NCBI GenBank assembly: GCA_964597315.1
Contig: CAZQXD010000018.1
Span: forward strand, 1,678 to 65,677
Length of the DNA: 64,000 nucleotides
Reading direction: 5' to 3'
From: an uncultured Candidatus Competibacteraceae bacterium
GTDB lineage: Bacteria > Pseudomonadota > Gammaproteobacteria > Competibacterales > Competibacteraceae
Below, piece after piece: positions 24,391 to 60,368 of this stretch. The translations under genes were made by a program, and so were the position numbers. Every line of letters starts with the position of its first letter. Position 1 is the stretch's first letter. Under the pieces are notes generated by a model, which did not search any database, was not told where the DNA came from, and saw only the letters and a list, made by a program, of their open reading frames with translations.

Positions 24391-24421
24391 CCCCCTGTCA
24401 AAATAATATGAGGACACGTTA

Positions 24422-24715
24422 ATGACCAAGCTACTGGACCTGGGGGTGACCCTGGCGATGATGATCCTGGCCTTGGGCGTGGTTGCTTATGCCCAGTGGG
24501 GCGCGGCCCGCTACACTCGCAGTAGCGCCCGAACCGTGCTGCTCAGTGTCGCGCAGATTGCCTTGGGCGTGGTGCTGGGTTGGCTGGCGGTGCGCTTTTC
24601 GAGTACAGACGGCGTTAGCGCCGTTTTTGCTTTCGTTTTGGCCTTCAGTCTGGCCCATCTGCCGGGCGCCTTGGTGGTGCTGGTCCGTCATGGGTTGGGC
24701 TGGTTGCGGGGCTAA
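24422..24715 (+). CDS. Small integral membrane protein (3 predicted TM helices)
   Basis: Hydrophobic segments LGVTLAMMILALGVVAY, LLSVAQIALGVVLGWLAV and VFAFVLAFSLAHLPGALVVLV. No family recognised. Confidence 0.5.
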   Translation: MTKLLDLGVTLAMMILALGVVAYAQWGAARYTRSSARTVLLSVAQIALGVVLGWLAVRFSSTDGVSAVFAFVLAFSLAHLPGALVVLVRHGLGWLRG

Positions 24716-24769
24716 GGCCCGCTACCGTTCAATAGCTCCGAGTCACATAAACGGCGAACGGCCTAGGCC

Positions 24770-26236: not shown

Positions 26237-26238
26237 TA

Positions 26239-26448
26239 GCGTGTGTATGCCTCGGTGACGTAGCGCCGCAGCGCGCGGTGACTGTTAAACAGGACGGCGT
26301 TCTTGGTGATGGCGTGTGTCGCGCCGCAGGTCCCTGCCGTCTCCAAAAGACGCGGCGGAGCGTTCGAGACCCGGGCGGTGTTCATAGCATAGTCGGGAAT
26401 AAGGAGCATGGGCGGGATCTCCCTCAATGCATCCCAAATGCGCTGCAA
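26239..26448 (-). pseudogene. Decayed C-terminal remnant of an alpha-glucan (GlgP-type) phosphorylase
   Basis: The translation ...MLLIPDYAMNTARVSNAPPRLLETAGTCGATHAITKNAVLFNSHRALRRYVTEAYTR* parallels the phosphorylase C-terminus (...FLEDYDM.LAR....PRRPLEASGTSGMKA..NG.L ... F...RM..EY....Y). It has internal deletions and has lost the PLP lysine. Its TAA overlaps the GH13 ATG (TAATG). Confidence 0.45.
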
Positions 26449-26491
26449 TCCTACACACGCATTGACTCGCCGGACGCCCAGGGGCGTGGTC

Positions 26492-27949
26492 TCAAGCCCC
26501 CGCTGCCCCCTGGCGTCGCAGGGCGCGGCTGGCAAAGGCCGCCAGATCCCTGAATACCGGCTCCAGGGACGCTTCCCGCTGGGGTTCCGGTTGCGCCAGC
26601 AGGGTGTCGATGCGGGCTTCCAGGTCCTGGGCTTCCCCGGGTTCGCCATGGGGCGCCAGTTCCGCCAACAGCGTTCGATGCACCCCTCGGCGTTCCATGA
26701 CCTCCATGCCGTCCAGCATCTGGCGGTGGCTGGTCCCCTCCCAAATGGCCAGAATCATGGCTTCCCGCAACCAGCGTTCTGCGGGATACTCTCCCAGCAC
26801 GCCCTGCCCCCCGTGGACCTCCATGGCCCAACGGGCGGTATCCACAGCGAAATCGGCTGTCCAGTACTTGGCCAGATGGGCCAGCAGTCGGAAGCGGTGA
26901 TAGTCCTCTTGATAGGGGGGGTTCTGGCGCCACACTGTCTCCAGCCGATCTACCGCCGCCCAGGCCAGGGCGCTGGCGGCCTCCAGGTTGGCGGTCCGGT
27001 CGGCGAACTGGCGCGCCAGCAGGGGGTGTTCCAAGATCGGTCGGCCAAAGGCTACCCGCTCCCGGGCAAAGACCAGGGCTTCGGCCATGGCGCGCTGGGC
27101 CAGAGCCACGCTAGCCACAGCGTTGGCCACCCGAGACAGGTTCAGAACCTCCAGAATCATATACACGCCCCCCTGCTCCGGCCCCAGCCGGTAGGCTTCG
27201 GCATCCCGTAACTCCACCTCTCCGGTGGGCACCGAGCGAGTGGCGATCTTGTCTTTGAGTCGGCGCACCTGATAATTGAGTCGGCCCTCGCTGTCATGGC
27301 GGCCCAGTACGAACAAGGCCAAGCCCAGCACCCCGGATGGCGCTCCCTCGGGACGGGCCGCCACCACCGCCACCTCGGCGCCGACGTTGGAGCAAAAATA
27401 CTTGTCGCCGGTCAGCCGCCAACGCTCCCCATCCCGGCGAGCCACGGTGGACACATTGGCGCCTAAGTCAGAGCCGCCGCGAATCTCGGTCATCCAGGTG
27501 GCCCCCTGCCACACGGTCTCGTCGCGGCGCAGTAGCGGCTCCAGAAACCGCTGTCTAAAGTGGGCATCCCCGTATTTATCCAGGGGGGCGGCGGTGGACA
27601 GGCTGACCGTATAGGGGCAGTACAGGCCGGGGTCAAAGAAGGCCGTCACATAACCCAACCGGTAAGCGGCGGCCAAGGAGTCGCTAAAGGCCAGCCACAC
27701 CGCCCCGGCTCGATAGCCGGCCAGCAACAGCCGCTGATAGTCCGGGGGATAAAGTAACTCGTCCACCCGCCGCCCGCCTCGGTCATGGTGGCGCAGCCAG
27801 GGGGTGCCCAAGCGGTCCACCGCCTCCGAGATAGGCATGCCCTCCTCCCGCCACCAGCGGGCGTAGTCGTTCAGCCCGGCCTGGTCGGGCAAGGCGCTCA
27901 GCTGGGCATCCAGAAAGGCCACCGGGGAGGTCAGGATATCCAAATTCAT
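26492..27949 (-). CDS. Acyl-CoA dehydrogenase family protein (AidB-like)
   Basis: 485 aa. The middle and C-terminal ACAD-like regions (...GATWMTEIRGGSDLGAN...GDKYFCSN... and ...EVHGGQGVLGEYPAERWLREAMILAIWEGTS...) fit the family. Start at MNLDIL (27949). Confidence 0.78.
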   Translation of the reverse strand: MNLDILTSPVAFLDAQLSALPDQAGLNDYARWWREEGMPISEAVDRLGTPWLRHHDRGGRRVDELLYPPDYQRLLLAGYRAGAVWLAFSDSLAAAYRLGYVTAFFDPGLYCPYTVSLSTAAPLDKYGDAHFRQRFLEPLLRRDETVWQGATWMTEIRGGSDLGANVSTVARRDGERWRLTGDKYFCSNVGAEVAVVAARPEGAPSGVLGLALFVLGRHDSEGRLNYQVRRLKDKIATRSVPTGEVELRDAEAYRLGPEQGGVYMILEVLNLSRVANAVASVALAQRAMAEALVFARERVAFGRPILEHPLLARQFADRTANLEAASALAWAAVDRLETVWRQNPPYQEDYHRFRLLAHLAKYWTADFAVDTARWAMEVHGGQGVLGEYPAERWLREAMILAIWEGTSHRQMLDGMEVMERRGVHRTLLAELAPHGEPGEAQDLEARIDTLLAQPEPQREASLEPVFRDLAAFASRALRRQGAAGA

Positions 27950-28515
27950 GGCGCCGTCCCCTCGTCCAATTGCCCCAGACTGAAAAACACTCCCCCGCTC
28001 CACACCCCGTATTCGCGCCGACCGTTACTAAGGCGCTCATCCCCCCGTTCGATCAATTCCAGGTACACCGCCCGGGAGATCAAGGCCCACAGTTGGCCCC
28101 GCACCCGCACATAGGGGGATGGTTCGCCATTCTTGGCGAAGGTGACTTCGATGGGATGGTCGGGACCGGCGAGTACCCGGTCTCCCAGGTTGGTGGTAAA
28201 ACGCAGTCGTTGCTCCCGGCCCGTGCCCTCCACATCCAACAGCACCGCCAGAAACGGCGCGTCCTCCACCTGAATGCGCCATTTCTCCACGGGGGTCAGC
28301 AAATAATGGTGGCCATCCGGGTCCCGGCGCAGAATGGTAGAAAACAACCGCGCCAAAGATGCTCGGAGGATGGGCTGGCCTTCGTGGTACCAGGTGCCGT
28401 CCCGGGCGATACGCAAATCCATTTCCCCGGATAGAGGCGGGCGCCAAGACTCCACGGGGGGTAGGCTTTGGCCCTGGACTTGAGCGGCCAGGGTCGCCGG
28501 ATCGGGTTTCGCCAT
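27946..28515 (-). CDS. DUF1285 domain-containing protein
   Basis: ...DLRIARDGTWYHEGQPILRASLARLFSTILRRDPDGHHYLLTPVEKWRIQVEDAPFLAV... fits DUF1285. Its stop overlaps the ATG of the downstream ACAD gene (ATGA). Confidence 0.78.
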   Translation of the reverse strand: MAKPDPATLAAQVQGQSLPPVESWRPPLSGEMDLRIARDGTWYHEGQPILRASLARLFSTILRRDPDGHHYLLTPVEKWRIQVEDAPFLAVLLDVEGTGREQRLRFTTNLGDRVLAGPDHPIEVTFAKNGEPSPYVRVRGQLWALISRAVYLELIERGDERLSNGRREYGVWSGGVFFSLGQLDEGTAP

Positions 28516-28853
28516 GGGGTCTCCCGGGCAAATGAACTCGGTTAAAATAATAGGGTGATTTTTTGGGTCTTACAGGACTATAGCCCCACTGTAGGCGCAA
28601 CCAGGGCCTCGGGATAGCGGAATAGAGCGTTACAGAACACCGCTCAACAGGATAATCAATTATACAAAAAATTTGTCCTAAATAAGCTGGCCTCAATCCA
28701 CCAGGGCGGCGCCACGCCCAAACCTATACGCGGTAACGGCGTAGGCATCGCTCTTCGTGAGCGAGCCAAACCCCGGCTCTGTCAGAGGTCCGGCATCTGC
28801 GGACCCGGGGTGGCCGTAGGTTGTCTATAGTCGATAATCCATGGAGACCACCC

Positions 28854-29669
28854 ATGCAGCGCCGTCTGTTCCTCGTTGGCTTAGCTTTGTTGCCGCCGAC
28901 CCTAGCCCTGGCCGCTCCCAAAGCTGAATTGTGGCCCCGCTGGACCGCCCACGACCCCCGCTCCACCCTGAGCGTTGACCACGGTCTCTGGGACGGGTTT
29001 TTGGGCCGCTATGTGCGTGTCAGCCCCGACGGCATCAACCGGGTGGGCTATGCCGGAGTGAGGGCAGCTGACCGTCAGGCCCTGGACGCCTATCTGGGGA
29101 CCTTGCAACAAACCCCGGTCAGCCGCCTAGCCCGAACCCCGCAGCGGGCCTTTTGGATCAACTTGTATAACGCCCTAACCGTACAAGTCATATTGGACCA
29201 TTACCCGGTGCGCGGCATCCGCGATATCGATATTTCCGGCTTTTTCGCCGACGGCCCTTGGGGTAAAAAGTTGGTGACGGTGGAGGGCGAAGCCCTCAGC
29301 TTGGACGATATCGAGCACCGCATCCTGCGGCCCCTTTGGCAGGACCCTCGCACCCATTACGCCGTCAACTGCGCCTCCCTGGGCTGCCCCAATTTGCAGG
29401 CCCGGGCCTATACCCCCGAGAACCTGGAAGGTTTGCTGGAAAAAGGCGCCCGAGACTATATCAACCATCCCCGGGGCGTCCAGGTGCGGGACGGTCGACT
29501 GATCGTGTCCAGTCTCTATGCCTGGTTCCAGGCCGATTTCGGAGGCGACGAGACCGGGGTGATAGAGCATTTGCGCCAGTACGCGGCCCCGGAATTACGC
29601 CGTCGATTGGAGACGGTAAGTCACATTGACGATGACGCCTATGATTGGTCCCTGAATGACTATCGTTGA
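28854..29669 (+). CDS. DUF547 domain-containing protein (secreted)
   Basis: Signal peptide MQRRLFLVGLALLPPTLALAAP. The core is ...RAFWINLYNALTVQVILDHYP...LSLDDIEHRILRP...DPRTHYAVNCASLGCPNL... GGAGA lies before the ATG at 28854. Confidence 0.8.
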   Translation: MQRRLFLVGLALLPPTLALAAPKAELWPRWTAHDPRSTLSVDHGLWDGFLGRYVRVSPDGINRVGYAGVRAADRQALDAYLGTLQQTPVSRLARTPQRAFWINLYNALTVQVILDHYPVRGIRDIDISGFFADGPWGKKLVTVEGEALSLDDIEHRILRPLWQDPRTHYAVNCASLGCPNLQARAYTPENLEGLLEKGARDYINHPRGVQVRDGRLIVSSLYAWFQADFGGDETGVIEHLRQYAAPELRRRLETVSHIDDDAYDWSLNDYR

Positions 29670-29710
29670 ATCCAGCGGCGCCATGGCCCGCCGGTTCGCC
29701 CTGCTGTGGC

Positions 29711-30790
29711 TTACCGCGTTGGCATTAGTCCGCACTGGCGCAGCACCACCTGCCAGGCTTGGGTATGGCGCTGGGTGGCCCGCCGGAAACGCTGCCAGAG
29801 TCCGGTCTGCGTATCCATGGCCAGCATTCGTGCGTGATAGACGGCGAAACTCGGGGGCGGTTCCACGTTTTGCATGTGGATCAACCCATTGATGGCCGTT
29901 AGCCAGGCTTCCCCTTGGCGGTGGACCTGGGAGAGATAAGGCCGCACCCGACCGGCGTAAAACTTGACGAACACCGTATGCAGAATTCGGCCCCGCTCGC
30001 TGGGCTGCTGACGAAAACAAACCGGCCGCGTGTCAACCGCCGCCTCCAGGGCTGCCGCCGCCCGCTCCAGGGTATCGCTGAGCAGGGCCAAGGCATGCAA
30101 CAGCCGACCGCCGTATTGCTGTAACTGCAAGGTGTAGTACTGGGATTCCAGGTCTTCTAGGGAGAGTGTCAGCGTCGGTTCTCCCAGCCGTCGGCCCAGG
30201 CTGTTGAAATAGTTTAATGCCTGTAGGGAATTAACAAAGGCGGTGTCCTCCGCCGGTTCCAGGGGGGGTACCGCCAGGCTGAAGGCTTTTTGCATCTCCG
30301 GGCTAGCGAGGGTGGCGTTCCAGAAGACCCGGGCCAGGTTGTCCGCCTTGATGGCGATGATCTGATCCAGTTCCATCAGCAACTCCGGGTCCGGGGCGGG
30401 TTCGGCGGCCAGTCGGGCACGGCAGGCGGTGGCGCTTTGTAGAAACCGCAACTCGTAATCCAGTCGTCGAGAGATGGGCATGACGCGGCCCAGAATGCTG
30501 TTGCGCTCGCTAATGACGCTGAACAACTCGCAACCATGAAGCTGAAAAAACCTGACAATACCCAGGCGCAGGTCCGCCAGGGGCAGGGAACGCTCCCGAG
30601 GGGAAGGGTAGACGGCCAGAATCGGCGGATCGGCGGCGGACCCATGCGCGCCGGAGGCGTTGCCTACCCGGTACACGTAGTCTTCCAGCAGACCTTCGGG
30701 CGATTGGGCAGCGCCGCAGCCGCCGGCCAGAACGACTGCCAGGGGCAGCAACCACGAAGAGCGGAACCAAGGGGGAAATACAGGGCGCAT
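29711..30790 (-). CDS. Putative lipoprotein (DUF3080-like)
   Basis: MRPVFPPWFRSSWLLPLAVVLAGGCGAAQSPEGLLEDYVYRVGN... has lipobox LAGGC. The DUF3080 assignment is from memory of the family pattern only. Confidence 0.5.
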   Translation of the reverse strand: MRPVFPPWFRSSWLLPLAVVLAGGCGAAQSPEGLLEDYVYRVGNASGAHGSAADPPILAVYPSPRERSLPLADLRLGIVRFFQLHGCELFSVISERNSILGRVMPISRRLDYELRFLQSATACRARLAAEPAPDPELLMELDQIIAIKADNLARVFWNATLASPEMQKAFSLAVPPLEPAEDTAFVNSLQALNYFNSLGRRLGEPTLTLSLEDLESQYYTLQLQQYGGRLLHALALLSDTLERAAAALEAAVDTRPVCFRQQPSERGRILHTVFVKFYAGRVRPYLSQVHRQGEAWLTAINGLIHMQNVEPPPSFAVYHARMLAMDTQTGLWQRFRRATQRHTQAWQVVLRQCGLMPTR

Positions 30791-31029
30791 GATGTGCTGA
30801 AACCGAGCCTGATAGAGGTGACGGTTGCTTTGACCCAACCTGGGAACAATGGTGCGCTGCCAGCCGGGCGATTGTAGATCCTACATAGACGCTGCCACTG
30901 GAAGCCGTTAAGGTTCGCCATTGGTCGAGAAATAAAACCGCAACCATATGAAACTAATAAGTTAAATAAAATGGCCCGTGGTTTGCATAAAGTGTTGGCC
31001 AGTGTTTTTTCAACGCCCTTGGAGTTCCC

Positions 31030-31395
31030 ATGAAAAAAGCCTTGTTCTTGAGTACCGTGCTGTTGGTCGCCACACCGCCCCTGGTCTTGGCCGCCGATGC
31101 CGCCGAGCCTGAAAAGCCGGATTATACGGCCCAGGATACTGATCCCCTGGGGGCCACCCCCCGCCCTGGTATCAATGTAGATACCGAACTCCAGGCCGGA
31201 CAAGCCGCCGATACGGATGCCTCCCCGGATTACCAAGGTGATGCAACCGACCCCCAAGGGGTCACCCCTCGCCCTGGTGTCAATGTGGATATGGAGCCTC
31301 CCCAGGACGTCGAGTCGGCTATCGACCCATTAGGTAGCCCAGCCGACCCGGATACCAGCATCAGTACCGGCACCGGCGCTGGCGCCGGGGGTTGA
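31030..31395 (+). CDS. Small acidic Pro/Asp-rich secreted protein with an internal duplication
   Basis: Signal peptide MKKALFLSTVLLVATPPLVLA. Repeats are PDYTAQDTDPLGATPRPGINVD and PDYQGDATDPQGVTPRPGVNVD. Gly/Ala tail. Confidence 0.5.
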   Translation: MKKALFLSTVLLVATPPLVLAADAAEPEKPDYTAQDTDPLGATPRPGINVDTELQAGQAADTDASPDYQGDATDPQGVTPRPGVNVDMEPPQDVESAIDPLGSPADPDTSISTGTGAGAGG

Positions 31396-31617
31396 AGGAG
31401 CGGGACAATCGACTTCCCATCACGGCCGCCGGTTCCTCCGGCGGCTCCCTCCCGCCTCCCGGACTGCAAATAGCGTGGGCAAAAACTGCACCGCGACTGC
31501 GCGATTGAACTATTTTTAAAGCGGGTCCTTGGCGCCCCTGGATATAAAAACCACACCGTAAATTGCCTAAGTCAGCATGATTTTCAATACTTCCACCTCG
31601 GGTTTAGGAGGATACGC

Positions 31618-33603
31618 ATGATGCGCGGTAAACGCTGTTATCTCAGCTTCTGCATTCTATCGATCTTGGCCAGTAGCGCCGTCTCCCAGGAACAAGCCGT
31701 TTCTCCAGAACAAGCCGTTTCCCAGGAACAAGCCGTTTCCCAGGAACAAGCCGTTTCCCAGGAGCAGGCCGGTGCCGCGCAGGCCGGTGCCGCGCAGGCC
31801 GGTGCCGCGCAGGCCGGTGACGCGCAGGCCGGTGCCGCGCAGGCCGGTGACGCGCAGGCCGGTGACGAGGCCGCCGAACAATTGAATGCCCTACGGGGCG
31901 AGCTGGAACAGGCCCGCCAGGACAATCAAAGCCTCCAAGCCCAGGTGGAGGAAGCACAAGGCAAACTGGAGGCGGCGGGTGTCCAGAGCGAAACCAGGAC
32001 CGCCGAGCTGGAGCAGCGCATCCAGACCCTGGAAGCCGAGCGCACCGCCCTAGAGACGGAGCGGGAAGCCGCCCAAGCCGAAGCCGAGAGTCTACGTGGC
32101 GAACAGGAGGTGGCTCGGGCAGAGGCCCGGATGATGCATGAGGAGCAGGATGCCCGCTTGCGGGAACTGGAGAACGCCAACGCCGCTTTGATCGAGGAAC
32201 GGGACCGCCTGCAAACCGAACTGGATACAGCCCGTCAGCAAGGGGAGCAGGCCAGCGCCCAACTCCAGTCCGCCCAAGCCGAGTTGGATACAGCCCGTCA
32301 GCAAGGGGAGCAGGCCAGCACCCAGCTCCAGTCCGTCCAAGCCGAGTTGGATACAGCCCGTCAGCAAGGGGAGCAGGCCAGCGCCCAACTCCAGTCCGTC
32401 CAAGCCGAGTTGGATACAGCCCGTCAGCAAGGGGAGCAGGCCAGCGCCCAGCTCCAGTCCGTCCAAGCCGAGTTGGACACCTTGCGCCAGGCCGGCGAGG
32501 ACGCCCAAAGCCAGGGGCAGGCGCTGCAAGCCCGGGTGGCCGAGTTGGAAGCTCAGTTGCAAGAGGTGGCGCAGGCGCGGGATACGGTCCAGTCCCGGTT
32601 GGAGGACTTGGCCCAGTCCAATGCCGATCTTGCCCAGGAGCGGGATACTCTCGCCAACCAACTCGGCGATATGCGCCAGACCGTGGGTGACGCCCATGCC
32701 GAGGTGCAGGATTTGCAGAATAACCTCAAATCCGCCCAAGAGCGGGTTTCAGCATTGGAGCAAGACCTGGACGCCACCCGCCAAGCCCAGGACGCCGCAG
32801 AGCAGGCCCGCCAGGATTTAGCTCAGCAACTGGCGGACAGCAACGCCCAACTGGAACAGGCTCAGGTGGAGCGGGTCAAGCTGGACGGAGAGTTGGCCGA
32901 ACTGGCTAAACAGCGGGATGCGCTTTCCGCCGAGCGGGACCAGTTACAGAGCCAAGTAGACGGTGAGTTGTCCGAGCTGACTCAACAACGGGACGCCCTG
33001 ACCGCCGAGCGGGATGAATTGCAGGCCCGGTTGGAGGAGGCAGCGGCGGCCCGGGATGAAGCCAGTCAATCCCTGGAAGCCAGCCGGGTCAATCTTGGAG
33101 AGCGGGACCAGGAACTGGAGGCTTTGCGCCAGGAGCGCACCGACTTGGCGAGCCAGCTTGAGGCTATACAGCAGGATCGGGACGAACAGGATCGGCGGGC
33201 GACCGAGGTCCAGGGGCAGGCCGATACCCTGAGCGCGGAACGGGATAGCCTGCAACAACAGCTACAGGCGCAATCTGGGGAAGTGGATACCCTCAATCAG
33301 TCTCTGGCCCAGGCGCGGGAACAAATCGCGGACCTGGAATCCACCCTGGCGGCTACCCGACAGCAGCTTGGGAGTATGCTGGAAACCACTCGCGGCCAGC
33401 TCGACGCGGCCCAGGCCGAGGCCGAACAATACGCCGGGGCCCGTGGCAGTTACACGGTGCAGCGGGGCGATAGTCTGTCCTCCATCGCCGTGAAGTTCTA
33501 CAAGGACAGCATGCAATGGACCCGGATCTTCGAGGCCAACCAAGAGACCCTTCCCAACCCCGACCTGTTGGAACCGGGCGTCCGGTTGATTATTCCTCAA
33601 TAA
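31618..33603 (+). CDS. Long coiled-coil protein with N-terminal signal/anchor, tandem peptide repeats and a C-terminal LysM domain
   Basis: AGGAGG RBS. The N-terminus is hydrophobic. About 550 aa are Q/E/A/L-rich heptad-like sequence. The C-terminus [50 protein letters not shown] is a canonical LysM. Confidence 0.8.
31687..31758 (+). repeat. 18-bp in-frame tandem repeat x4 (caggaacaagccgtttcc; QEQAVS)
   Basis: Read directly from the sequence. The copies are near-perfect. Confidence 0.9.
31765..31866 (+). repeat. 15-bp in-frame tandem repeat, about 6.8 copies (gcgcaggccggtgcc/ggtgac; AQAG[A/D])
   Basis: Read directly from the sequence. Confidence 0.9.
32218..32484 (+). repeat. 63-bp in-frame tandem repeat, about 4.2 copies ([21 protein letters not shown])
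   Basis: Copies start at 32218, 32281, 32344 and 32407, with a partial copy at 32470. They differ by only 1-3 nt. Confidence 0.9.
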
Positions 33604-43932: not shown

Positions 43933-44064
43933 ATGGACCTGACGATCACTTCCAGACTGTTTCCGGGACGCATAGGCCCGGGTTGCCGATGGCGTCCCTA
44001 GCCCGACCGCAACCCGTGGGTCCGACCATTCATTCGTTTTGGAACATTGCGAAGGCGTCAGCAT

Positions 44065-45602
44065 ATGAAACCCGAACAATTCGCCAGCCTGGCCGAGCAG
44101 GGCTATAACCGCATTCCCGTATTCCGGGAGGTCTTGGCTGACCTGGACACCCCCCTGAGTACCTATCTGAAACTGGCCGACGGTCCCTATTCCTATCTGC
44201 TGGAATCGGTGCAGGGAGGGGAGAAGTGGGGCCGCTACTCCATCATCGGCCTGCCCTGCCGTAAGGTGTTGCGGGTGCGCGGCCACCACATCACCCTGGA
44301 GAATGCCGGGGAGATTGTCGAGCGCGTTACCGTGGCCGATCCCCTGGCCTGGATCGAAGCCTTCCAGGCCCGCTACAAAGTGCCCGTGGCCGGGGAGGGC
44401 CTGCCCCGCTTCATCGGCGGCCTGGTGGGCTATTTCGGCTACGACACCATCCGCTATATCGAGCCGCGTCTGGCCCATTGCCCCAACCCCGACCCCCTGG
44501 GCACCCCGGACATCCTGCTGCTGGTCTCCGAAGACGTAGTGGTGTTCGACAATCTGGCCGGCAAGCTGCACATCATCACCCTGGTGGACCCGGCCCTGGA
44601 ACGGGCCTACGATAAGGCCCAGGCCCGCCTGGAAGGGATCGTAGAACGCCTGCGAGGCGCCCGGCCCGAATACCGCCACAGCCATGGTCGGGAGCGGGTA
44701 GGGGAGGAGGACTTCGGCTCCAGCTTCAGCCGCGAGGGCTACGAGGCGGCGGTGGAGCGGATCAAGCACTATATCGTCGAAGGGGACTGCATGCAGGTGG
44801 TGCCCTCCCAGCGCATGTCCATCCCCTTTCAGGCCGCCCCCCTGGACTTGTACCGGGCCTTGCGCAGTCTCAACCCCTCTCCTTATATGTATTTCTTCCA
44901 TCTGGAGGATTTCCATATCGTCGGCTCCTCCCCTGAGATCCTGGCCCGGCTAGAGGACGGCACGGTCACCGTGCGACCCATCGCCGGCACCCGGCCCCGG
45001 GGGGCCACCGAGGCCGAGGACCAGGCCCTGGAGCAGGACCTGCTGGCCGATCCCAAGGAACTGGCCGAGCATCTGATGCTCATCGACCTAGGCCGCAACG
45101 ATGTGGGCCGGGTGGCCCAGACCGGCAGCGTCCGGCTCACCGAAAAAATGGTGGTGGAGCGCTATTCCCATGTCATGCATATCGTCTCCAACGTCACCGG
45201 CCGGCTCAAGCCTGTTAAACTGTCGCATGTCAAGCCATACTTGCGACTGAAGAATCCGGGCTCAAGCCGGGGCTGACCGCCATCGAGGTGCTGCGGGCCG
45301 CCCTGCCCGCCGGCACCCTCTCCGGGGCGCCCAAGATCCGGGCTATGGAAATCATCGACGAGCTGGAGCCGGTCAAGCGGGGTGTTTACGGGGGCGCGGT
45401 GGGCTATCTGTCCTGGTCGGGCAATATGGACACCGCCATCGCCATCCGCACCGCCGTCATCAAGGACAACACCCTGTATATCCAGGCCGGGGGCGGCATC
45501 GTCGCCGACTCGGTGCCAGCCACCGAATGGGAGGAGACCCTCAACAAGCGTCGCGCCATGTTCCGGGCCGTGGCCATGGCCGAGCGGGGGGTGGATCGAT
45601 GA
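44065..45602 (+). pseudogene. trpE: Anthranilate synthase component I with its reading frame interrupted by a 56-nt insertion
   Basis: Frame A (track 44047..45276) reads ...[19 protein letters not shown], then an aberrant tail [20 protein letters not shown]. Frame B resumes ...[50 protein letters not shown]... through to 45602. Deleting 56 nt gives a continuous TrpE of about 493 aa. Confidence 0.85.
45213..45268 (+). other. 56-nt insertion in trpE: a 46-nt AT-richer core plus the second copy of the 10-nt direct repeat GGCTCAAGCC
   Basis: The direct repeats are at 45203-45212 and 45259-45268. The core is TGTTAAACTGTCGCATGTCAAGCCATACTTGCGACTGAAGAATCCG (21/46 GC) and contains the inverted repeat GTCGCA-N14-TGCGAC. 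Confidence 0.85.
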
Positions 45603-45630
45603 ATACCTTATTGACCGACAGGGGTGCGCC

Positions 45631-46209
45631 ATGCTGCTGATGATCGATAACTACGACTCCTTCACCTATAACCTGGTCCAGTACCTGGGGGAACTCAAGG
45701 CCGAGGTGGCGGTGTACCGCAACGACTGCATCGGCCTGGAGGAGATGGAGGCCCTGCACCCGGAGCGGATCGTCATTTCCCCCGGGCCGTGCACCCCCAA
45801 CGAGGCGGGTATCTCGGTGGAGTCCATCAACCACTTCGCCGGCCGGGTGCCGATCCTGGGGGTCTGCCTCGGGCACCAGAGCATCGGCCAGGCTTTCGGT
45901 GGGCGGATCGTTCACGCCCGGGAGATCATGCACGGCAAGACCTCCCTGATCCACCATAAGAATAGTGGCGTGTTCCAGGGCCTGCCCAATCCCTTCCAGG
46001 CCACCCGCTACCATTCCCTGGTCATCGACAAGCACAGCTTGCCGGACTGTCTGGAGGTCACCGCCTGGACCGAGACCCCGGCGGGAGAACTGGACGAGAT
46101 CATGGGGGTGCGCCATCGGGAGCTGGCCGTGGAGGGGGTGCAGTTCCATCCCGAGTCCATACTCACCCCTCAAGGTCACGATCTGTTGGCCAATTTTTTA
46201 AACTCATAA
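45631..46209 (+). CDS. trpG: Anthranilate synthase component II (glutamine amidotransferase)
   Basis: [23 protein letters not shown]...[15 protein letters not shown]...VQFHPES is a class I GATase triad protein. Confidence 0.95.
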
Positions 46210-46232
46210 CAAGCCATCCGGGGAGAGCTACC

Positions 46233-47249
46233 GTGGATATGCAAACAGCCATCCGTGCGGTCACCGAGGGCCGCGACCTGTCGGCTGCGGACATGACCGA
46301 GGTGATGCGCGCCATCATGACCGGCAACGCCACCCCAGCCCAGATCGGCGGCTTTCTGGTGGGGCTGCGGATCAAGGGCGAGACCGTGGAAGAAATCGCC
46401 GCCGCCGCCAAAGTGATGCGCGAACTGGCCACCCGGGTAAACATCACCAGCCCCCATCTGGTGGATACCTGTGGCACCGGTGGGGACGCCGCCGGCACCT
46501 TCAACATCTCCACTGCCAGCGCTATCGCCGCCGCCGCCGGCGGAGCCAAGGTAGCCAAGCACGGCAACCGCGCCGTGTCCGGCAAAACTGGCAGCGCCGA
46601 CGTGCTGGAGGCCGCCGGGGTGAAGCTGGACCTAGCCCCGGAGCGGATTGGCGCCTGCATCGAGGAGGTGGGGGTGGGGTTTCTGTTCGCCCCCCTGCAC
46701 CACGGCGCCATGCGCCACGCCATCGGCCCGCGCCGGGAGATGGGGGTACGCACAATCTTTAATGTGCTGGGGCCGCTCACCAACCCCGCTGGAGCGCCCA
46801 ACCAGGTGATGGGGGTATTCGCCGCCGCCTGGGTGGAGCCTCTGGCCCAGGTGCTGGGCCGACTGGGCAGTCGCCATGTGCTGGTGGTCCATTCCGAAGA
46901 CGGTTTGGACGAGATCAGCATCCAGGCCCCCACCCGGGTGGCGGAACTCAAGGACAGGGAGGTGCGAAACTATTTCATCACCCCCGAGGATTTCGGCATC
47001 CAGCGCCACCCTCTGGAGACCATCAAAGTAGCCGACACCGCCCAGAGCCTGGCCATGATCCGCGAAGCCCTGAGCGGTCGGCCCGGTCCGGCCCAGGATA
47101 TCGTGGCCCTCAATGCCGGGGCCGCCCTGTATGTGGCTGGGCTGGCTGACACCCTGGCCGCGGGCGTGGAACTGGCCCAGGTCCGCATCGCCGACGGTTC
47201 GGCGGCACGGGTATTGGAGCGGTTGGCAGCCTTCTCCCAACAGGCGTGA
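46233..47249 (+). CDS. trpD: Anthranilate phosphoribosyltransferase
   Basis: ...[20 protein letters not shown]...[19 protein letters not shown]... The start is GTG at 46233 or ATG at 46239. Confidence 0.94.
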
Positions 47250-53755: not shown

Positions 53756-55288
53756 GTGGATACTATGCAACACTACCTAGAAAAAATCCTTACCGCCCGG
53801 GTCTACGACGTAGCGGTGGAGAGTCCCCTGGACCCCATGGCCCGCTTGTCCCGGCGTCTGGACAACCGTGTCCTGCTGAAGCGTGAAGATCTCCAGCCGG
53901 TGTTCTCCTTCAAGCTGCGGGGCGCCTATAACAAGATTGCCGGTCTGCCCAAAGAGGCCCTGGACCGGGGGATTATCTGCGCTTCGGCAGGCAACCACGC
54001 CCAAGGGGTGGCCCTGGCGGCCCAGCGGCTGGGGGTCAGGGCGGTGATCGTCATGCCCCGCACCACCCCGGATATCAAAGTGGAAGCGGTGCGCAATCTA
54101 GGGGGTGTGGCCGTGCTGCATGGAGATGCCTTCGACGAGGCTTATCAGCATGCTAAGCAATTGGAGACCGAGGAAGGGCTGACCTTTATCCACCCCTACG
54201 ACGATCCCGCTGTCATCGCCGGCCAGGGCACGGTCGGTCTGGAAATCCTGCGCCGCCACCCGGACCCCATCGAGGCCATTTTCATCCCCGTGGGAGGCGG
54301 CGGTCTGCTGGCCGGCATCGCTGTCTGCGTCAAGTATCTGCGCCCGGACATCAAAATCATCGGCGTGGAGCCAGATGAAGCCGCCTCCATGCACCAGGCC
54401 CTCAAGCACGACCGGCGGGTGCTGCTTGACCATGTGGGCATCTTCGCCGACGGGGTGGCGGTGCGCCAGGCCGGGGAGGAGACCTTTCGCATCGCCCGGG
54501 AGACCGTGGACGAAGTGGTCTTGGTCTCCACCGACGAAATCTGCGCCGCCATAAAAGATATCTTCGACGACACCCGCTCCATCGCCGAACCGGCCGGCGC
54601 CTTAGGGGTGGCGGGTCTCAAGAAATATGTAGCCCGGGAGGGGTTGCGGGGGGCCAATCTAGTGGCGGTCAACAGCGGCGCCAATGTCAATTTCGACCGC
54701 CTGCGCCATGTGGCCGAGCGGGCCGAGCTGGGGGAGCGTCGGGAGGCCCTGTTCGCGGTGACCATTCCCGAACGGCCCGGTAGTTTCCGGCAGTTCTGCG
54801 AGTCCATCGGCCAGCGCCAGATCACCGAGTTCAACTATCGCTATAACGACAGCCGGGCGGCCCAGATATTCGTGGGTCTGCAATTGTCCGGTGGGGAGAG
54901 CGAGCGAGAGCGGATGCTCCAAGTATTGCGCGACCAGGATTACCCGGTGTTGGATATGACCGACAACGAGATGGCTAAACTCCATGTGCGCTATATGGTA
55001 GGGGGGCATGCCCCAGGTATCCGCGACGAGTTGCTATACCGATTCCAGTTCCCGGAGCGGCCAGGCGCCCTGCTGAAGTTCCTCACCGGCCTGGCCAAGG
55101 GCTGGAATATCAGCCTGTTTCACTACCGCAATCACGGCGCCGACTATGGCCGGGTGCTGGTGGGCGTCCAGGTGCCCCCGAAAGAGCGGGACGAGTTCGA
55201 ACACTGTCTCAAGGTGCTGGGCTACGAGTACTTTCCCGAGACCGGCAATCCCGTCTACCGGCTGTTCCTGGACGGTCACGGGGATTGA
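53756..55288 (+). CDS. ilvA: Biosynthetic threonine ammonia-lyase
   Basis: PLP lysine region ...[19 protein letters not shown]... and two C-terminal ACT-like regulatory repeats. The start is GTG at 53756 or ATG at 53765. Confidence 0.92.
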
Positions 55289-55291
55289 ACC

Positions 55292-55750
55292 TCACTCCAA
55301 GCCCAGAATATAAGCCCATTGTTCCGGGTGGACCGGCATCACCGACAGCCGGTTGCCCCGCTTGAGTAGAGCCAGGCCGTCCAATTGGGGATGGGACTTG
55401 AGTTCGGCCAGGGTGATGACGCGACGTAGCTTGCGCGACAGCCGGATATCCACCCGGTACCAGCGGGGCTGGGCCGGGTCGCTTTTGGGATCGTGGTAGG
55501 GGCTGTGGGGGTCGAAGGCGGTGCTGTCTGGATAGCCCGCCCGCACCACTTCGGCGATGCCTACGATGCCCGGTTGTTGAGTGTTGGAGTGATAGAAAAA
55601 CACCTGGTCCCCGGCCTTGACTTGATCCCGTAGCCAGTTACGGGCCTGATAGTTGCGTACCCCGTCCCAGGGTTCGGTGGCGTCGGGCCGGGCCGCTAGG
55701 TCGTCGATGCCGAAGGTCTCGGGTTCCGATTTGAACAGCCAGTACTGCAT
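55292..55750 (-). CDS. EVE (PUA-like) domain protein
   Basis: MQYWLFKSEPETFGIDDLAARPDATEPWDGVRNYQARNWLRDQVKAGDQVFFYHSN... is the canonical EVE N-terminus. Confidence 0.8.
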   Translation of the reverse strand: MQYWLFKSEPETFGIDDLAARPDATEPWDGVRNYQARNWLRDQVKAGDQVFFYHSNTQQPGIVGIAEVVRAGYPDSTAFDPHSPYHDPKSDPAQPRWYRVDIRLSRKLRRVITLAELKSHPQLDGLALLKRGNRLSVMPVHPEQWAYILGLE

Positions 55751-55752
55751 GC

Positions 55753-56364
55753 TCAGTCCAGGGGAAAGCCCGTATCACCCGAGTATAGGGCCGCCTCGGT
55801 GGCCACGCCATCCAGGGGCACATCCCAGGACTGGCGCTCCAGTGCGGCCACCTTTTGAACCTCATAGGCCAGTCCCAGCAGATGAGGTTTGTGCAGGTGA
55901 TTGGGGGTATTGAGAAAAGCGAAAGTTCGGTCGTAGAAGCCGCCACCCATACCCATCCGGGTGCCCCGGTCATCGAAGGCCACCAGCGGCAGCAGGACCA
56001 GGTCCAGTTGCTGGGGGGGCAGCAGGTCACCGCTCGGCGCCTGCGGTTCGGGGATGCCGAAGTGGTTGGGGGTCATGGGCGTGTCGGCGTCATAGGGGGC
56101 AAATAACAGATGCACCGGCGGGTTGCCGATGAGTACTGGCAGATAGATACGTTTGCCCATGGCCCAGGCCCGCTCCAGCAACGGCGCCGGGTCCAACTCC
56201 CCATCAAAGGCCAAATAGGCGGCGATCCGCCGGGCGCTTGCGAATAAGCGCAAACCCGCTACCCGGCGGGCTACCCCATGGGCGGCGGCATGGCGTTGGG
56301 AGTCATGCAACTGGCGGCGGCGAGCGCGAAGCTGGCGGCGTAGCGGGGTGGAGGGGGCTTGCAT
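55753..56364 (-). CDS. ygfA: 5-formyltetrahydrofolate cyclo-ligase
   Basis: ...LRRQLRARRRQL... N-terminus and ...GMGGGFYDRT... motif. I moved the start to the ATG at 56364, because the longer track ORF (to 56409) overlaps the 3' end of 6S RNA. Confidence 0.8.
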   Translation of the reverse strand: MQAPSTPLRRQLRARRRQLHDSQRHAAAHGVARRVAGLRLFASARRIAAYLAFDGELDPAPLLERAWAMGKRIYLPVLIGNPPVHLLFAPYDADTPMTPNHFGIPEPQAPSGDLLPPQQLDLVLLPLVAFDDRGTRMGMGGGFYDRTFAFLNTPNHLHKPHLLGLAYEVQKVAALERQSWDVPLDGVATEAALYSGDTGFPLD

Positions 56365-56373
56365 ATATAAAGA

Positions 56374-56572
56374 GGGCATCCTCCGCCTGTGCCGTTTAGG
56401 GGCCATCACCCTTGAACCGGACGGTCCAAGTGGGGAATTCCGGCTGGCGTATTAGGCTTTCCGCTACAAGGCGGACCTGCACACAACGCCAACAAACTCG
56501 TTCCCCGGGTATAGTCAATTTAGGATCAAGGGGTATACCCGGCCCATTGGGCGAACACTACAGAGGATGCCC
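56374..56572 (-). ncRNA. ssrS: 6S RNA
   Basis: It sits between zapA and ygfA, the conserved gammaproteobacterial position. The 5' GGGCAUCCUC pairs with the 3' GAGGAUGCCC to close the stem. Internal segments GUUCGCCCAAUGGGCC and GGUUCAAGGGUGAUGGCC resemble E. coli 6S (GUUCGCAAGCGGGCC; GGUUCAAGGGUUACAGCC). Confidence 0.78.
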
Positions 56573-56581
56573 ATAACGAAA

Positions 56582-56896
56582 CTATACTTCCATTTGGGGG
56601 GTATTGTTAAGGGTTGCGTCAAGTTTGTCGGTCAGATTGTCGATGCGCCCACATAGATCCTGGTCTTGATGGTTGCGTTCCTGGCGGTCACGCAGGAGGT
56701 CATGGACAATATTCAAGGCTGCCATGACGGCGATGCGCTCCGTGCCCAGCACCTTGCCTCCGGCGCGAATTTCCAGCATCTGATCATTCAGGTAATGGGC
56801 TGCCCGGAGCAGGGCTTCGTGCTCCTCGGAGGGGCAGGCCACCCGGTATTCGCTATCCATAATCTGCACGACCACCGGGGCTTTGTCATCGCTCAT
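56582..56896 (-). CDS. zapA: Cell division protein ZapA
   Basis: MSDDKAPVVVQIMDSEYRVACPSEEHEALLRAAHYLNDQMLEIRAGGKVLGTERIAVMAALNIVHDLL... Start at 56896. Confidence 0.85.
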   Translation of the reverse strand: MSDDKAPVVVQIMDSEYRVACPSEEHEALLRAAHYLNDQMLEIRAGGKVLGTERIAVMAALNIVHDLLRDRQERNHQDQDLCGRIDNLTDKLDATLNNTPQMEV

Positions 56897-56897
56897 A

Positions 56898-57125
56898 TTA
56901 AGGCTCCAGGGCTTTGAGGCGGGCGACCATGGCTTCGATGCGCGCTCGCGACAGTTCGTTTTTCTCCAGCAGCTCATTGCGCTCGGCGGTGAGCGTCGTG
57001 TGCTGTTGGCGCAGGTCCTGGTTCTCGTCCCTCAGCCGGTCACAGAGCTGAATCAGTTCTTCCAACCGGACTTCCAGTCTGTCCAGGGCAAGGGCGGCCT
57101 TGTTGTTGGTGGGCTCGGTTTGCAT
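56898..57125 (-). CDS. Small coiled-coil protein upstream of zapA (TIGR02449 / ZapB-like)
   Basis: MQTEPTNNKAALALDRLEVRLEELIQLCDRLRDENQDLRQQHTTLTAERNELLEKNELSRARIEAMVARLKALEP is one continuous heptad coiled coil. Its stop abuts the zapA ATG (TAATATG). Confidence 0.6.
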   Translation of the reverse strand: MQTEPTNNKAALALDRLEVRLEELIQLCDRLRDENQDLRQQHTTLTAERNELLEKNELSRARIEAMVARLKALEP

Positions 57126-57234
57126 GAAAATCACTATAGATCGCCCTCCCCAGGCGGTCAATGCTAGGATGAAGCTGCTATCCTGCCTTATGTGCGGCCC
57201 CACCGGAACCCCCGCTTGGGCTGCGGAGACCGAC

Positions 57235-57813
57235 ATGAACGCCAGCCCCGAAATCCCCGAGTTTGCCCGTATCGACCGCTTGCTAGGCCGCATCGGTAAT
57301 CCCTCCGACCCGGCGGAAATCCACGGCCTGCTATGCGGCATCTACTGCCTGCGAGGCGCCGTCGGTCGTGATGTGTGGATGCTTCAGGTGTTGGGCGACG
57401 GCTATCAAGAGGCCAGCCGAGAGGAAACCAATATACTCCTGGAACTCTTTGAGGCCACCACCCGTCAATTCAACGATACCGACCTGGGGCTGGCGCTGCT
57501 GCTCCCGGACGACGACGAACCCTTGAGCGAGCGCGCCGATTCCCTGGGTGAATGGTGCCAGGGCTTCATGGCCGGACTGGGACTGGGCGGGATCGATTCA
57601 CGCCAGGATCTGTCCGCCGAGGTACAGGAGTTTTTGCGGGATTTGCTGGAAATCTCTCGCCTGGAGTTCGACACCGACGAGGTGGACGAAAGCGACGAGA
57701 CGGCCTATGTGGAGATCGTCGAATACGTGCGCATGGGCATTCTGCTGGTCAACGAGGAACTGCGCCACCGGCTACGGGAACCCGCCGGTCCCGGTTCCTC
57801 CCGAATCCACTAG
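57235..57813 (+). CDS. ygfB: UPF0149 family protein YgfB
   Basis: ...SDPAEIHGLLCGIYC...EWCQGFMAGLGL...EFLRDLLEISRLEF...EIVEYVRMGILLV... GGAGA lies before the ATG at 57235. It occupies the conserved ygfB-pepP-ubiH position. Confidence 0.8.
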   Translation: MNASPEIPEFARIDRLLGRIGNPSDPAEIHGLLCGIYCLRGAVGRDVWMLQVLGDGYQEASREETNILLELFEATTRQFNDTDLGLALLLPDDDEPLSERADSLGEWCQGFMAGLGLGGIDSRQDLSAEVQEFLRDLLEISRLEFDTDEVDESDETAYVEIVEYVRMGILLVNEELRHRLREPAGPGSSRIH

Positions 57814-57829
57814 AGAAGACCGATATTTC

Positions 57830-59146
57830 ATGTTCGCCAACGCCATACCCGCCGAGGAATTCGCCGCCCGCCGTCAGGCGCTGCTGGAGCGCATGGAGCC
57901 GGGTAGCATCGCCCTGCTCCCCGCCGCCCCAGAACGCCAGCGCAACCGGGACGTGCACCACCCCTATCGCCAGGACAGTGATTTCTATTACCTCACCGGG
58001 TTTCCCGAGCCCGAGGCTCTGGCGGTGCTGATACCCGGGGCCGATCAGCCCTATGTGCTGTTCTGCCGGGAGCGGGACCCCGAACAGGAAACTTGGAACG
58101 GCCGCCGCGCCGGCCAGGGGGGGGCGGTGGAACATTACGGGGCCGACGTTTCCCACCCCATTACCGCCCTGGACGAGACTCTGCCCACGCTATTGGAGAA
58201 CCGTCGCCGAGTGTATTGCGCCCTGGGCTATGACCCGGATTTCGACAATCGGCTGCTGGGCTGGGTCAACGCCGTGCGGGCCAAAGTCCGCACCGGGGTG
58301 CGCTCACCCCGGGAGTTGGTCTGCGTGGAGGAGTTAATCCACGATCTGCGCTTGCGAAAAAACGCCCCTGAACTGGCGGTGATGCGCCAGGCTGCGGAGA
58401 TCTCCGCCGAGGCCCATCGACGGGCTATGCAGATATGCAAGCCGGGGCTAACCGAATACCAGATCGAGGCGGAGATCCTCCATGTCTTCGCCCGCCAGGG
58501 GGCCGGCTTCGCCTATCCGTCCATCGTCGGCGGCGGCGAGAACGGCTGTATCCTCCATTACACCGAGAACAGCGCCGAACTGCGGGACGGCGACCTATTG
58601 CTGATCGACGCGGGTGCCGAGATGGACAACTACGCCGCCGACATCACCCGCACCTTCCCGGTCAATGGCCGTTTCTCCCCGGAGCAGAGGGCGGTTTACG
58701 ACGTGGTGCTGGCCGCCCAGAAGGCCGCCATCGCCACCGTCATGCCCGGCCATACCTGGAACCAGCCCCACGAGGCGGCGGTGCGGGTGCTGACCGAGGG
58801 CCTGGTGGACCTGGGCTTGCTCCAGGGGGAGTTGGAGGAACTCATCGACGCCGAAGCCTACAAGCCCTTTTACATGCACCGCACCGGCCACTGGCTGGGC
58901 ATGGATGTTCACGACGTGGGCGACTACAAGATTGACGGCCACTGGCGCCAACTGGAACCGGGCATGGTGCTGACCGTGGAGCCGGGTTTGTATATCGCCG
59001 CTGGCGCGGACGGTGTGGACCCACGCTGGTGGTCCATGGGTATTCGCATCGAAGACGACGTGCTGGTCACCCCCGAGGGTTGCCAGGTACTCACCTCCGG
59101 GGCGCCCAAGGACATTGAGACCATCGAGGCCCTGATGCGGGGTTGA
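57830..59146 (+). CDS. pepP: Xaa-Pro aminopeptidase
   Basis: ...YRQDSDFYYLTGFPEPEA...LLLIDAGAEMDNYAADITRTFPVNG...HRTGHWLGMDVHD...LTVEPGLY...GIRIEDDVLVT are the M24B metal ligands. Confidence 0.93.
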   Translation: MFANAIPAEEFAARRQALLERMEPGSIALLPAAPERQRNRDVHHPYRQDSDFYYLTGFPEPEALAVLIPGADQPYVLFCRERDPEQETWNGRRAGQGGAVEHYGADVSHPITALDETLPTLLENRRRVYCALGYDPDFDNRLLGWVNAVRAKVRTGVRSPRELVCVEELIHDLRLRKNAPELAVMRQAAEISAEAHRRAMQICKPGLTEYQIEAEILHVFARQGAGFAYPSIVGGGENGCILHYTENSAELRDGDLLLIDAGAEMDNYAADITRTFPVNGRFSPEQRAVYDVVLAAQKAAIATVMPGHTWNQPHEAAVRVLTEGLVDLGLLQGELEELIDAEAYKPFYMHRTGHWLGMDVHDVGDYKIDGHWRQLEPGMVLTVEPGLYIAAGADGVDPRWWSMGIRIEDDVLVTPEGCQVLTSGAPKDIETIEALMRG

Positions 59147-59148
59147 GC

Positions 59149-60360
59149 ATGAACCGTTATGACCTGCTGATCGTGGGCGGTGGCCTGGTGGGGGCCGCCC
59201 TGGGTTGCGCCTTGGGGGACCGGGGGCTGCGTATTGGCCTGGTGGAGGCCCATCCCTTCAGGGCCGACAGCCATCCCGGTTACGACGACCGCACCCTGGC
59301 CCTGTCCTATGGCAGCCGGCGGATCTTCGAGGGCCTGGGGCTGTGGCAGGCCCTGGCCCCGGAAGCCACTCCCATTCAGGCCATTCATATCTCCGACCGG
59401 GGCCGACCCGGCATGGCCCATCTAGATGGCGCCGGGCAAGGGGTGGAGGCTTTGGGCTATGTACTCACCGCCCGGGTCATTGGCGCGGCGCTGCTGTCGC
59501 GCTTGGAGCGGCTGCCGGGGGTGGAGCTGTTGTGCCCCGCCAGCTTGGAGGACTTGACCCTGCACTCTGAGGCGGCCCAGGCCGAGGTCATCCTGAACGG
59601 CCAGTCCGTGAACCTGGAAGCCCGCTTGCTGGTGGCCGCCGACGGCGCCCGCTCCCGAGTCCGCCAGCGGCTCGGCATCGAGGCCCTGCGCTGGGACTAC
59701 GGCCAGGCGGCGGTGATCGCCAACGTCAGCCCCGAACTACCCCACCGCAACCGGGCCTTCGAGCGCTTCACCGAGGCCGGGCCGGTGGCCCTGCTGCCCC
59801 TGGGGGAGGACCGCTGCGCCGCCATCTGCACGGTGCGGGAGGCCGACCTGGAGTCTGTGCTGGCTCTGGACGACGCCGGTTTCGCCCGGCTGTTATCCGA
59901 CCGCTTCGGCGACCGGCTGGGGGCCTTCCTTAAGGTGGGTCGCCGTCAGTCCTATCCCCTGTCTCTGGTCAAGAGCCGGGAGCATATTCGCCACCGGGTG
60001 GCGGTGATCGGCAACGCTGCCCACACCCTGCATCCCATCGCCGGCCAGGGCTTTAATCTGGGGCTGCGGGACGTGGCGGCGCTGGCGGAACTGGTGGCCG
60101 ACGCCGCCGACGCCGACCCCGGCGCCCCGGCGCTGCTGGAACGCTACGCCCAGTGGCGACGCTGGGACCAGCGCCGCGCCATCGCTTTTACCGATGGCCT
60201 GGCCCGGCTGTTCGTAAACCCTCTGGGACCGGTGCGCCTGGCCCGTAACCTGGGCCTGCTGGCCTTCGATCTCGCCCCGCCCGCCAAGCGCTGGTTGGCC
60301 CGCCAGACCATGGGACTGGCTGGACGGCTGCCGCGATTGGCGCGGGGTCTGCCCTTATAA
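59149..60360 (+). CDS. ubiH: FAD-dependent ubiquinone biosynthesis hydroxylase UbiH
   Basis: FAD motif DLLIVGGGLVGAALG, then ...IGNAAHTLHPIAGQGFNLGLRD... It lies immediately after pepP. Confidence 0.87.
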   Translation: MNRYDLLIVGGGLVGAALGCALGDRGLRIGLVEAHPFRADSHPGYDDRTLALSYGSRRIFEGLGLWQALAPEATPIQAIHISDRGRPGMAHLDGAGQGVEALGYVLTARVIGAALLSRLERLPGVELLCPASLEDLTLHSEAAQAEVILNGQSVNLEARLLVAADGARSRVRQRLGIEALRWDYGQAAVIANVSPELPHRNRAFERFTEAGPVALLPLGEDRCAAICTVREADLESVLALDDAGFARLLSDRFGDRLGAFLKVGRRQSYPLSLVKSREHIRHRVAVIGNAAHTLHPIAGQGFNLGLRDVAALAELVADAADADPGAPALLERYAQWRRWDQRRAIAFTDGLARLFVNPLGPVRLARNLGLLAFDLAPPAKRWLARQTMGLAGRLPRLARGLPL

Positions 60361-60368
60361 GGAACGCC

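Follow-up and report, generated by a model that had tools for sequence, protein, structure and literature searches.

A 46-nt fragment of a foreign gene, flanked by a direct repeat, splits trpE in a Competibacteraceae metagenome contig

Templated or 'filler DNA' insertions at double-strand breaks, arising through non-homologous end joining (NHEJ), alternative end joining (alt-EJ) or microhomology-mediated break-induced replication (MMBIR), are mostly documented in eukaryotes and in bacteria bearing Ku/LigD. Short-patch double illegitimate recombination, or SPDIR, was reported from Acinetobacter baylyi (Harms et al. 2016, in the summary given by bioRxiv 10.1101/2023.11.22.568220), and that preprint attributes to it microindels of 3 to ~100 bp, which draw on intra- or extragenomic single-stranded DNA (ssDNA) donors and on microhomologies that may contain mismatches. 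In phage T4 gene 60 the take-off codon of the coding gap is followed by a UAG stop, and bypass relies on a nascent-peptide signal and a take-off hairpin for its efficiency (PMC5462505). Here we examine a locus with a likeness to all of these: the gene trpE (44065-45602, plus strand) in a 64-kb stretch of contig CAZQXD010000018.1, from an uncultured Candidatus Competibacteraceae bacterium. This whole stretch is referred to as the window and all coordinates follow its numbering. The gene is split by 56 nt, a 46-nt core together with one copy of a 10-nt direct repeat, and the core is identical to part of a gene of another bacterium. The best explanation, to which we give a probability of about 0.5, is that foreign DNA was inserted by illegitimate recombination, in a non-programmed event, creating a fresh trpE null allele. 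The feature is real in the sequence and ordinary in kind: the 56 nt are a private mutation scar or a chimera, neither a mobile nor a recoding element, and nothing points to mobility, recoding or selection.

The insert is like the products of SPDIR in that it is a short heterologous segment (46-49 nt) with an identifiable extragenomic donor, has an imperfect-microhomology joint, and is a one-off, non-mobile mutation. Unlike those products, it has microhomology at its left joint only, and its target was duplicated by 7-10 bp with no segment replaced. It also comes from an uncultured community. As a class, SPDIR events arise in vivo where ssDNA anneals at replication forks, and RecA, DprA and exonucleases suppress them. 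Filler DNA offers a second parallel, in that an ectopic template is copied, one joint has microhomology and the other is blunt, and a short flanking duplication fits upstream re-priming or staggered-end fill-in; the trpE insert differs in that its template is foreign DNA.

The features of the locus are as follows, each with coordinates, strand and description.

44065..45212, plus strand: 5' part of trpE, codons 1-382 and 2 nt; the start agrees with the gene call on the intact allele (SRR15635845_926 position 6811); holds Anth_synt_I_N and Chorismate_bind 2-167
45201..45206, no strand: left palindrome arm CCGGCT, half of the 14-bp palindrome of the intact target
45203..45212, no strand: left copy of GGCTCAAGCC; its final GCC is equally attributable to the donor (donor ...TCAGGCC/TGTT)
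45213..45258, minus strand: foreign insert of 46 nt (49 nt including GCC 45210-45212), antisense to nt ~600-645 of a FAD_binding_4/BBE oxidase gene
45259..45268, no strand: right copy of GGCTCAAGCC; single copy in the intact allele
45265..45270, no strand: right palindrome arm AGCCGG, which in the predicted RNA fold reaches over the insert to pair with 45201-45206
45269..45602, plus strand: 3' part of trpE, out of frame with the 5' part; an 11-residue motif, the GGGIVADS motif and Chorismate_bind 171-257/257
45274..45276, plus strand: premature TGA that ends the frameshifted 403-aa product
45870..45873, plus strand: synonymous differences in trpG, CTC GGG here against CTA GGC in the SRR15635845 contig

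Read directly, the order in the window is ...CACCGGCCGGCTCAAGCC / TGTTAAACTGTCGCATGTCAAGCCATACTTGCGACTGAAGAATCCG / GGCTCAAGCC / GGGGCTGACC..., and with both repeat copies set out the junction becomes ...CACCGGCC GGCTCAAGCC / TGTTAAACTGTCGCATGTCAAGCCATACTTGCGACTGAAGAATCCG / GGCTCAAGCC / GGGGCTGACC.... A first-pass annotation, made by a model from the letters and open reading frames (ORFs), had described a 10-nt repeat flanking a 46-nt core of low GC content, and both observations hold. The 10-mer GGCTCAAGCC has exactly two exact copies in the window (45203-45212 and 45259-45268) against a chance expectation of 0.27 per 64 kb, and the core (45213-45258) is 45.7% GC, where ~46% had been estimated, compared with 64% GC for the surrounding region. 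Allowing up to three mismatches, the core is single-copy within the window. The hexamers GTCGCA (45222-45227) and TGCGAC (45242-45247) are present with the described spacing of 14 nt, as is a third TCAAGCC (45230-45236), and the only inverted repeat of the core is internal (45222-45230 / 45239-45247).

The N-terminal reading frame passes through 20 aberrant residues to the TGA at 45274-45276, the stop already recognised from the letters, and yields a product of 403 aa (P0165). Downstream there remain ~110 codons and a stop instead of the 112 codons first counted. Deleting the 56 nt in silico restores an uninterrupted TrpE, as had been claimed; the restored protein has 493 aa and is identical to P0243, a protein called on independent assemblies, hence the repeat-flanked insertion is not a chance pattern. 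In Pfam searches the intact or repaired TrpE shows Anth_synt_I_N and Chorismate_bind 2-257/257 (E=2e-96). In the split allele, by contrast, Chorismate_bind is divided between separate frames, with 2-167/257 in the 403-aa product and 171-257/257 in the downstream ORF, so that the truncated product is without the final third of the chorismate-binding domain. As it stands, the split allele is incapable of giving a functional TrpE by ordinary translation; it would constitute a fresh null allele, side by side with the intact one in a single strain background. The nearest TrpE homologues are ~82% identical and are named Competibacteraceae anthranilate synthase I.

The truncated product was found in one public contig only, the NCBI contig of 66,660 bp that belongs to a metagenome-assembled genome (MAG), and contig-index look-ups of the 403-aa product and of the 104-aa C-terminal ORF gave no match. 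The 37-aa members of the P0165 cluster were considered as junction fragments and proved to be unrelated peptides. The 90% cluster with truncated and intact TrpE holds four such peptides (MGGWKGRGLQG...), which looks like a database clustering artefact.

The intact allele was recovered from the same strain. The window's exact Gph protein is present on Logan run-level contigs of SRR15635845 and SRR15635848, and two Logan contigs (22.6 and 32.5 kb) encode the intact 493-aa TrpE (P0243). As far as 45212, contig SRR15635845_926 matches the window at 100% identity over 7958 bp, and from 45259 at 99.96% over 4730 bp; exactly the 56 nt are missing from it. Two more SRR15635845 contigs are 100.000% identical to window 14770-31737 and 55102-64000. 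Across the ~38.5 kb compared with SRR15635845 contigs, nothing differs but the insertion and two synonymous single-nucleotide polymorphisms (SNPs) in trpG, at 45870 and 45873. These are third positions 3 nt apart, reading CTC GGG in the window, CTA GGC in SRR15635845 and CTG GGC in related species. They lie ~600 bp downstream of the insertion, a proximity expected in ~3% of cases by chance, and this clustering suggests that the co-assembly follows a distinct local haplotype. As the same strain holds an empty site with identical flanks, the split allele is recent. The comparison of TrpE orthologs across the junction that had been proposed at first reading gave the same picture: four related trpE genes from JGI metagenomes, with 31 nt upstream in common, represent the empty site and are all uninterrupted through ...GGCTCAAGCCGGGGCT....

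The origin of the core was sought by comparing its left 22 nt with 185,579 species-representative (GTDB) genomes. The exact 22-mer had one match among them, contig CAYULF010000020.1 of the MAG "uncultured Hyphomicrobiales bacterium SRP334346_co1_107". Here the identity covers all 46 of the 46 nt, 49/49 when the adjoining GCC is included (donor 7657-7705), and extends with one mismatch through TCAgGCC. The donor sequence lies inside an intact minus-strand ORF (P0121, 504 aa) with FAD_binding_4 and BBE domains by Pfam; the core falls within the FAD_binding_4 domain and is antisense in the window. The neighbours of the donor gene, a GCS2 ligase and a small lipoprotein-like ORF, are constant in four independent contigs. 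The core is likewise identical in the loci L005, L008 (on the same donor contig) and L009, and has 6 mismatches in relatives with 89% protein identity; because those relatives differ at the 6 positions, the core is native coding DNA of the donor lineage. What had been seen as an 'inverted repeat' and a 'third TCAAGCC' are mere features of a donor coding stretch. Searches of the core against viral contigs, plasmids and phages gave no match, and Rfam, run over 44000-46300 with E up to 10, returned two chance-level matches only. A 14-nt match, AAACTGTCGCATGT, in nuoG of CAYULF010000020.1 was discarded as a chance match.

Donor and recipient appear to share a data set. The exact donor protein P0121 occurs both on the MAG contig and in Logan run SRR15635858, which falls within the accession series of the recipient runs, SRR15635845 and SRR15635848. 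The name of the donor MAG marks a co-assembly of SRP334346. From the run numbering and the MAG name, donor and recipient runs probably form one study, and the window's MAG probably derives from the same SRP334346 co-assembly as the donor MAG. We found no paper in the literature mentioning SRP334346 or these SRR accessions.

The donor MAG is labelled Hyphomicrobiales, yet the named homologues of the FAD oxidase (55-58% identity) are nearly all from Bacteroidota, including Chitinophagales, Saprospiraceae and Flavobacteriales. The GC content of contig CAYULF010000020.1 also falls from ~59% to ~46% at 6000-7000, and its taxonomic label or binning may merit checking.

The two joints of the insert differ. 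At the left joint the recipient ...GGCTCAAGCC meets the donor ...TTGTCAGGCC, with an exact GCC in common flush with the joint and, allowing one mismatch, 7 nt in common (TCAaGCC vs TCAgGCC). Over donor positions, the chance probability of this microhomology is P=0.025 for GCC and P=0.0019 for 7 nt with at most one mismatch, and that of the exact internal TCAAGCC in the inserted fragment is P=0.028. Since the GCC can be assigned to the donor as well, the true target duplication is 7-10 bp. At the right joint the donor ...GAATCCG/TAACC meets the recipient /GGCTCAAGCC with zero bases in common, and the observed CCGGGCTC is not derivable by overlap with the recipient CCGGCTC. An extended microhomology in the right flank (TAACCGCC vs TGACCGCC, with an ACCGCC match 5 nt away) was considered and was not significant (P=0.28).

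The intact target CCGGCTCAAGCCGG is a perfect 14-bp palindrome, CCGGCT-CA-AGCCGG (window 45201-45212 and 45269-45270), and its centre is exactly that of the 10-bp duplication. Palindromes of this form, 6+6 with a 2-nt spacer, number only 34 in the 64-kb window. The palindrome may mark a break or pause site prone to hairpins, or symmetric cutting by an enzyme, or its presence at the target may be coincidental. In the predicted RNA fold of 45190-45290 (-39.7 kcal/mol, z=-2.6) the split palindrome forms a stem from which the foreign fragment loops out, and the duplicated codons come together; the fold is modestly stable because the palindrome arms pair across the insert, and we found no evidence of function for it.

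Taken as an insertion in a living cell, the locus could have formed as follows. A piece of 46-49 nt, internal and antisense to the FAD-binding oxidase gene, would have been copied or captured from an unrelated bacterium of the same community and inserted into trpE of the Competibacteraceae-like gammaproteobacterium, with 7-10 bp of the palindromic target duplicated. The mechanism would probably be microhomology-assisted illegitimate recombination or template switching, in which a 3' end at ...TCAAGCC paired with the donor TCAGGCC, 46 nt were copied, and the copied end finally joined the chromosome again 10 nt upstream, with no homology involved. Such a mechanism would resemble that of SPDIR microindels and of templated filler insertions at breaks. 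We put slightly under even odds on a genuine in-situ event, whereby ~46 nt of a co-resident bacterium's DNA was written in by microhomology-guided illegitimate recombination, SPDIR-like or as a templated insertion at the palindrome.

The geometry of the insert argues for an event in vivo. Its two joints lie 46 nt apart and lead back to the same locus and strand 10 bp upstream, which would be natural for a break or fork within one cell, and such a return to the same locus would be difficult in a tube, among free fragments from a complex community. Furthermore, 3-7 nt of microhomology is what illegitimate recombination such as SPDIR typically shows, and the insert size and type of donor fit published SPDIR microindels. 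Several points weigh against this explanation. The allele is represented by a single MAG contig, and both run-level assemblies spanning the site show the intact allele. The right joint has no microhomology, hence the two-joint microhomology characteristic of SPDIR is only partly present. SPDIR normally replaces a segment and leaves no target duplication, and it is very rare per cell, with a frequency given in the preprint as above 1e-13 per locus in wild-type A. baylyi (bioRxiv 10.1101/2023.11.22.568220). A trpE knockout would moreover need to reach an appreciable population frequency, and finding donor and recipient together in one data set is no less to be expected from an artefact.

The principal competitor is a laboratory or assembly chimera, in which polymerase template switching during amplification, for example in multiple displacement amplification (MDA) or library PCR, joined trpE, 46 nt of donor and trpE again, and the co-assembly threaded the product, so that no cell ever carried the allele. 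An artefact was among the first-pass suggestions and is still live, with the insert in one public contig and the donor in the same run series; we regard it as a substantial possibility, at appreciably less than even odds. It would account for an insertion allele private to one assembly while two independent single-run assemblies of the same strain are intact, and for a foreign segment from an organism of the same run series whose MAG name is that of a co-assembly product. Microhomology at the left joint is likewise seen in polymerase template switches, and events in vivo are very rare per cell and would here have destroyed a biosynthetic gene. Typical chimeras, however, join once, at a repeat or k-mer that both sides share. 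Here two joins lie 46 nt apart, at the same locus and on the same strand with a return 10 bp upstream, which would be hard to obtain from free metagenome molecules, and a microhomology of 3-7 nt is probably too short for annealing in PCR cycles. The intact window and 15 kb of donor DNA have no k-mer of at least 17 in common, nor any 9-mer within 100 nt either side of the joints, and the absence of a common k-mer of at least 17 excludes a de Bruijn graph jump, hence the joints were not invented by the graph and existed in the sequenced molecules. The two nearby SNPs in the co-assembly also suggest a genuine second haplotype. Metagenome assemblers normally drop low-coverage alternative paths, thus the path probably had real read support, which argues against a chimera.

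Three specific technical routes to such a chimera were considered and rejected. Gap closing by SPAdes, with a minimal overlap of 10 nt, is incompatible with donor and recipient 10-mers that differ at no fewer than 4 positions at both joints. Hi-C-like restriction, fill-in and ligation at two CCGG sites predicts junction sequences that mismatch those observed, and tagmentation by Tn5, with its 9-bp duplication, fails on the absence of mosaic-end sequence.

Integration by an enzyme is improbable. It would require dimeric cuts of integrase or transposase type, staggered by 10 bp within the 14-bp palindrome, and a short non-cognate fragment, with an IS4-type transposase, a casposase or off-target Cas1-Cas2 acting on a spacer-like fragment as candidate activities. 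The attraction lies in the duplication being exactly centred on the perfect palindrome CCGGCT-CA-AGCCGG; transposases and integrases give target duplications of fixed length at symmetric targets, such as the Tn10 hotspot NGCTNAGCN. Yet the fragment is an arbitrary internal piece of a gene with no terminal inverted repeats or known transposon ends, and the left-joint microhomology and internal TCAAGCC point to annealing rather than to sequence-blind integration. A fragment of 46-49 bp with a 10-bp duplication fits no known geometry of Cas1-Cas2 or casposases. No candidate enzyme was seen near the site, in the course of an analysis in which no search aimed at one was made.

We consider it very improbable that the insert is a miniature inverted-repeat transposable element (MITE) or the remnant of an almost precisely excised transposon, flanked by a target-site duplication. 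Nearly precise excision of Tn10 leaves a remnant of ~50 bp, and the trpE insert is similarly short, of lower GC content, with a small inverted repeat and a flanking 10-bp direct repeat of target-site-duplication size. Of the first-pass proposal on these lines, the target duplication (10 nt, with a true length of 7-10 nt) and the fresh pseudogene stand, the latter through the empty site in the same strain, whereas the MITE-like insertion or excision footprint does not, as the core is native coding DNA of another organism. Unlike a MITE or remnant, the core is not multi-copy: a search of the kind suggested at first reading found one copy in the 64-kb window at up to three mismatches and one other among the 185,579 genomes, the latter inside an intact, conserved coding gene whose relatives vary codon-wise across the core. 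It is also missing from viral contigs, plasmids and phages as searched here, and the insert has no terminal inverted repeats, since its ends, TGTTAAAC... and ...GAATCCG, are not complementary.

Programmed bypass, the ribosomal hopping of the first-pass annotation, is the least credible reading, almost to the point of dismissal: take-off from CTC-AAG (45205-45210) and landing on the identical codons at 45261-45266 after skipping 56 nt would give wild-type TrpE, and the gap resembles the 50-nt coding gap of T4 gene 60 in length, in its identical flanking codons and in potential RNA pairing around it, by way of palindrome arms predicted to pair across the insert, but the matched take-off and landing codons carry no weight because they follow automatically from a target duplication containing whole codons. 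Unlike the gene 60 gap, that in trpE has no stop after take-off, as the codons after AAG are CCT GTT AAA... and reading stays open for 20 codons to the TGA at 45274; it is not conserved, being absent from the same strain (two assemblies) and from four related trpE genes, and consists of a random antisense scrap of a foreign oxidase gene. Rfam gave no match. A gap that is foreign and missing from the same strain and from relatives had no opportunity to evolve bypass signals such as a nascent-peptide signal or a take-off hairpin.

The locus matters mainly as a caution, for a clean insert within a gene, with flanking repeats and codons that match, gave the appearance of a recoding or mobile element. 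Users of this MAG should not, unless reads support it, score trpE as lost or take the organism for a tryptophan auxotroph; the same strain carries an intact copy. If the allele is not real, the insert is an assembly blemish, and not a sign of tryptophan auxotrophy. If the insertion is genuine, it was caught at a time when mutant allele, empty-site allele and donor gene exist side by side in one community. This would be a natural, donor-resolved case of 'micro-horizontal gene transfer', so far shown mainly in laboratory A. baylyi, and a rare natural record of very short foreign DNA taken up by illegitimate recombination, bearing on extracellular DNA as a source of mutation in dense communities.

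Elsewhere in the window, a 661-aa ORF (31618-33603, plus strand) is built mostly from peptide repeats in tandem (QEQAVS, AQAGA/D and a ~21-residue unit present several times); it has coiled-coil character, and its C-terminal end looks LysM-like. The run-level assemblies break inside this ORF, with SRR15635845_1664 ending at 31737 and SRR15635845_926 starting, by calculation, near 32448.

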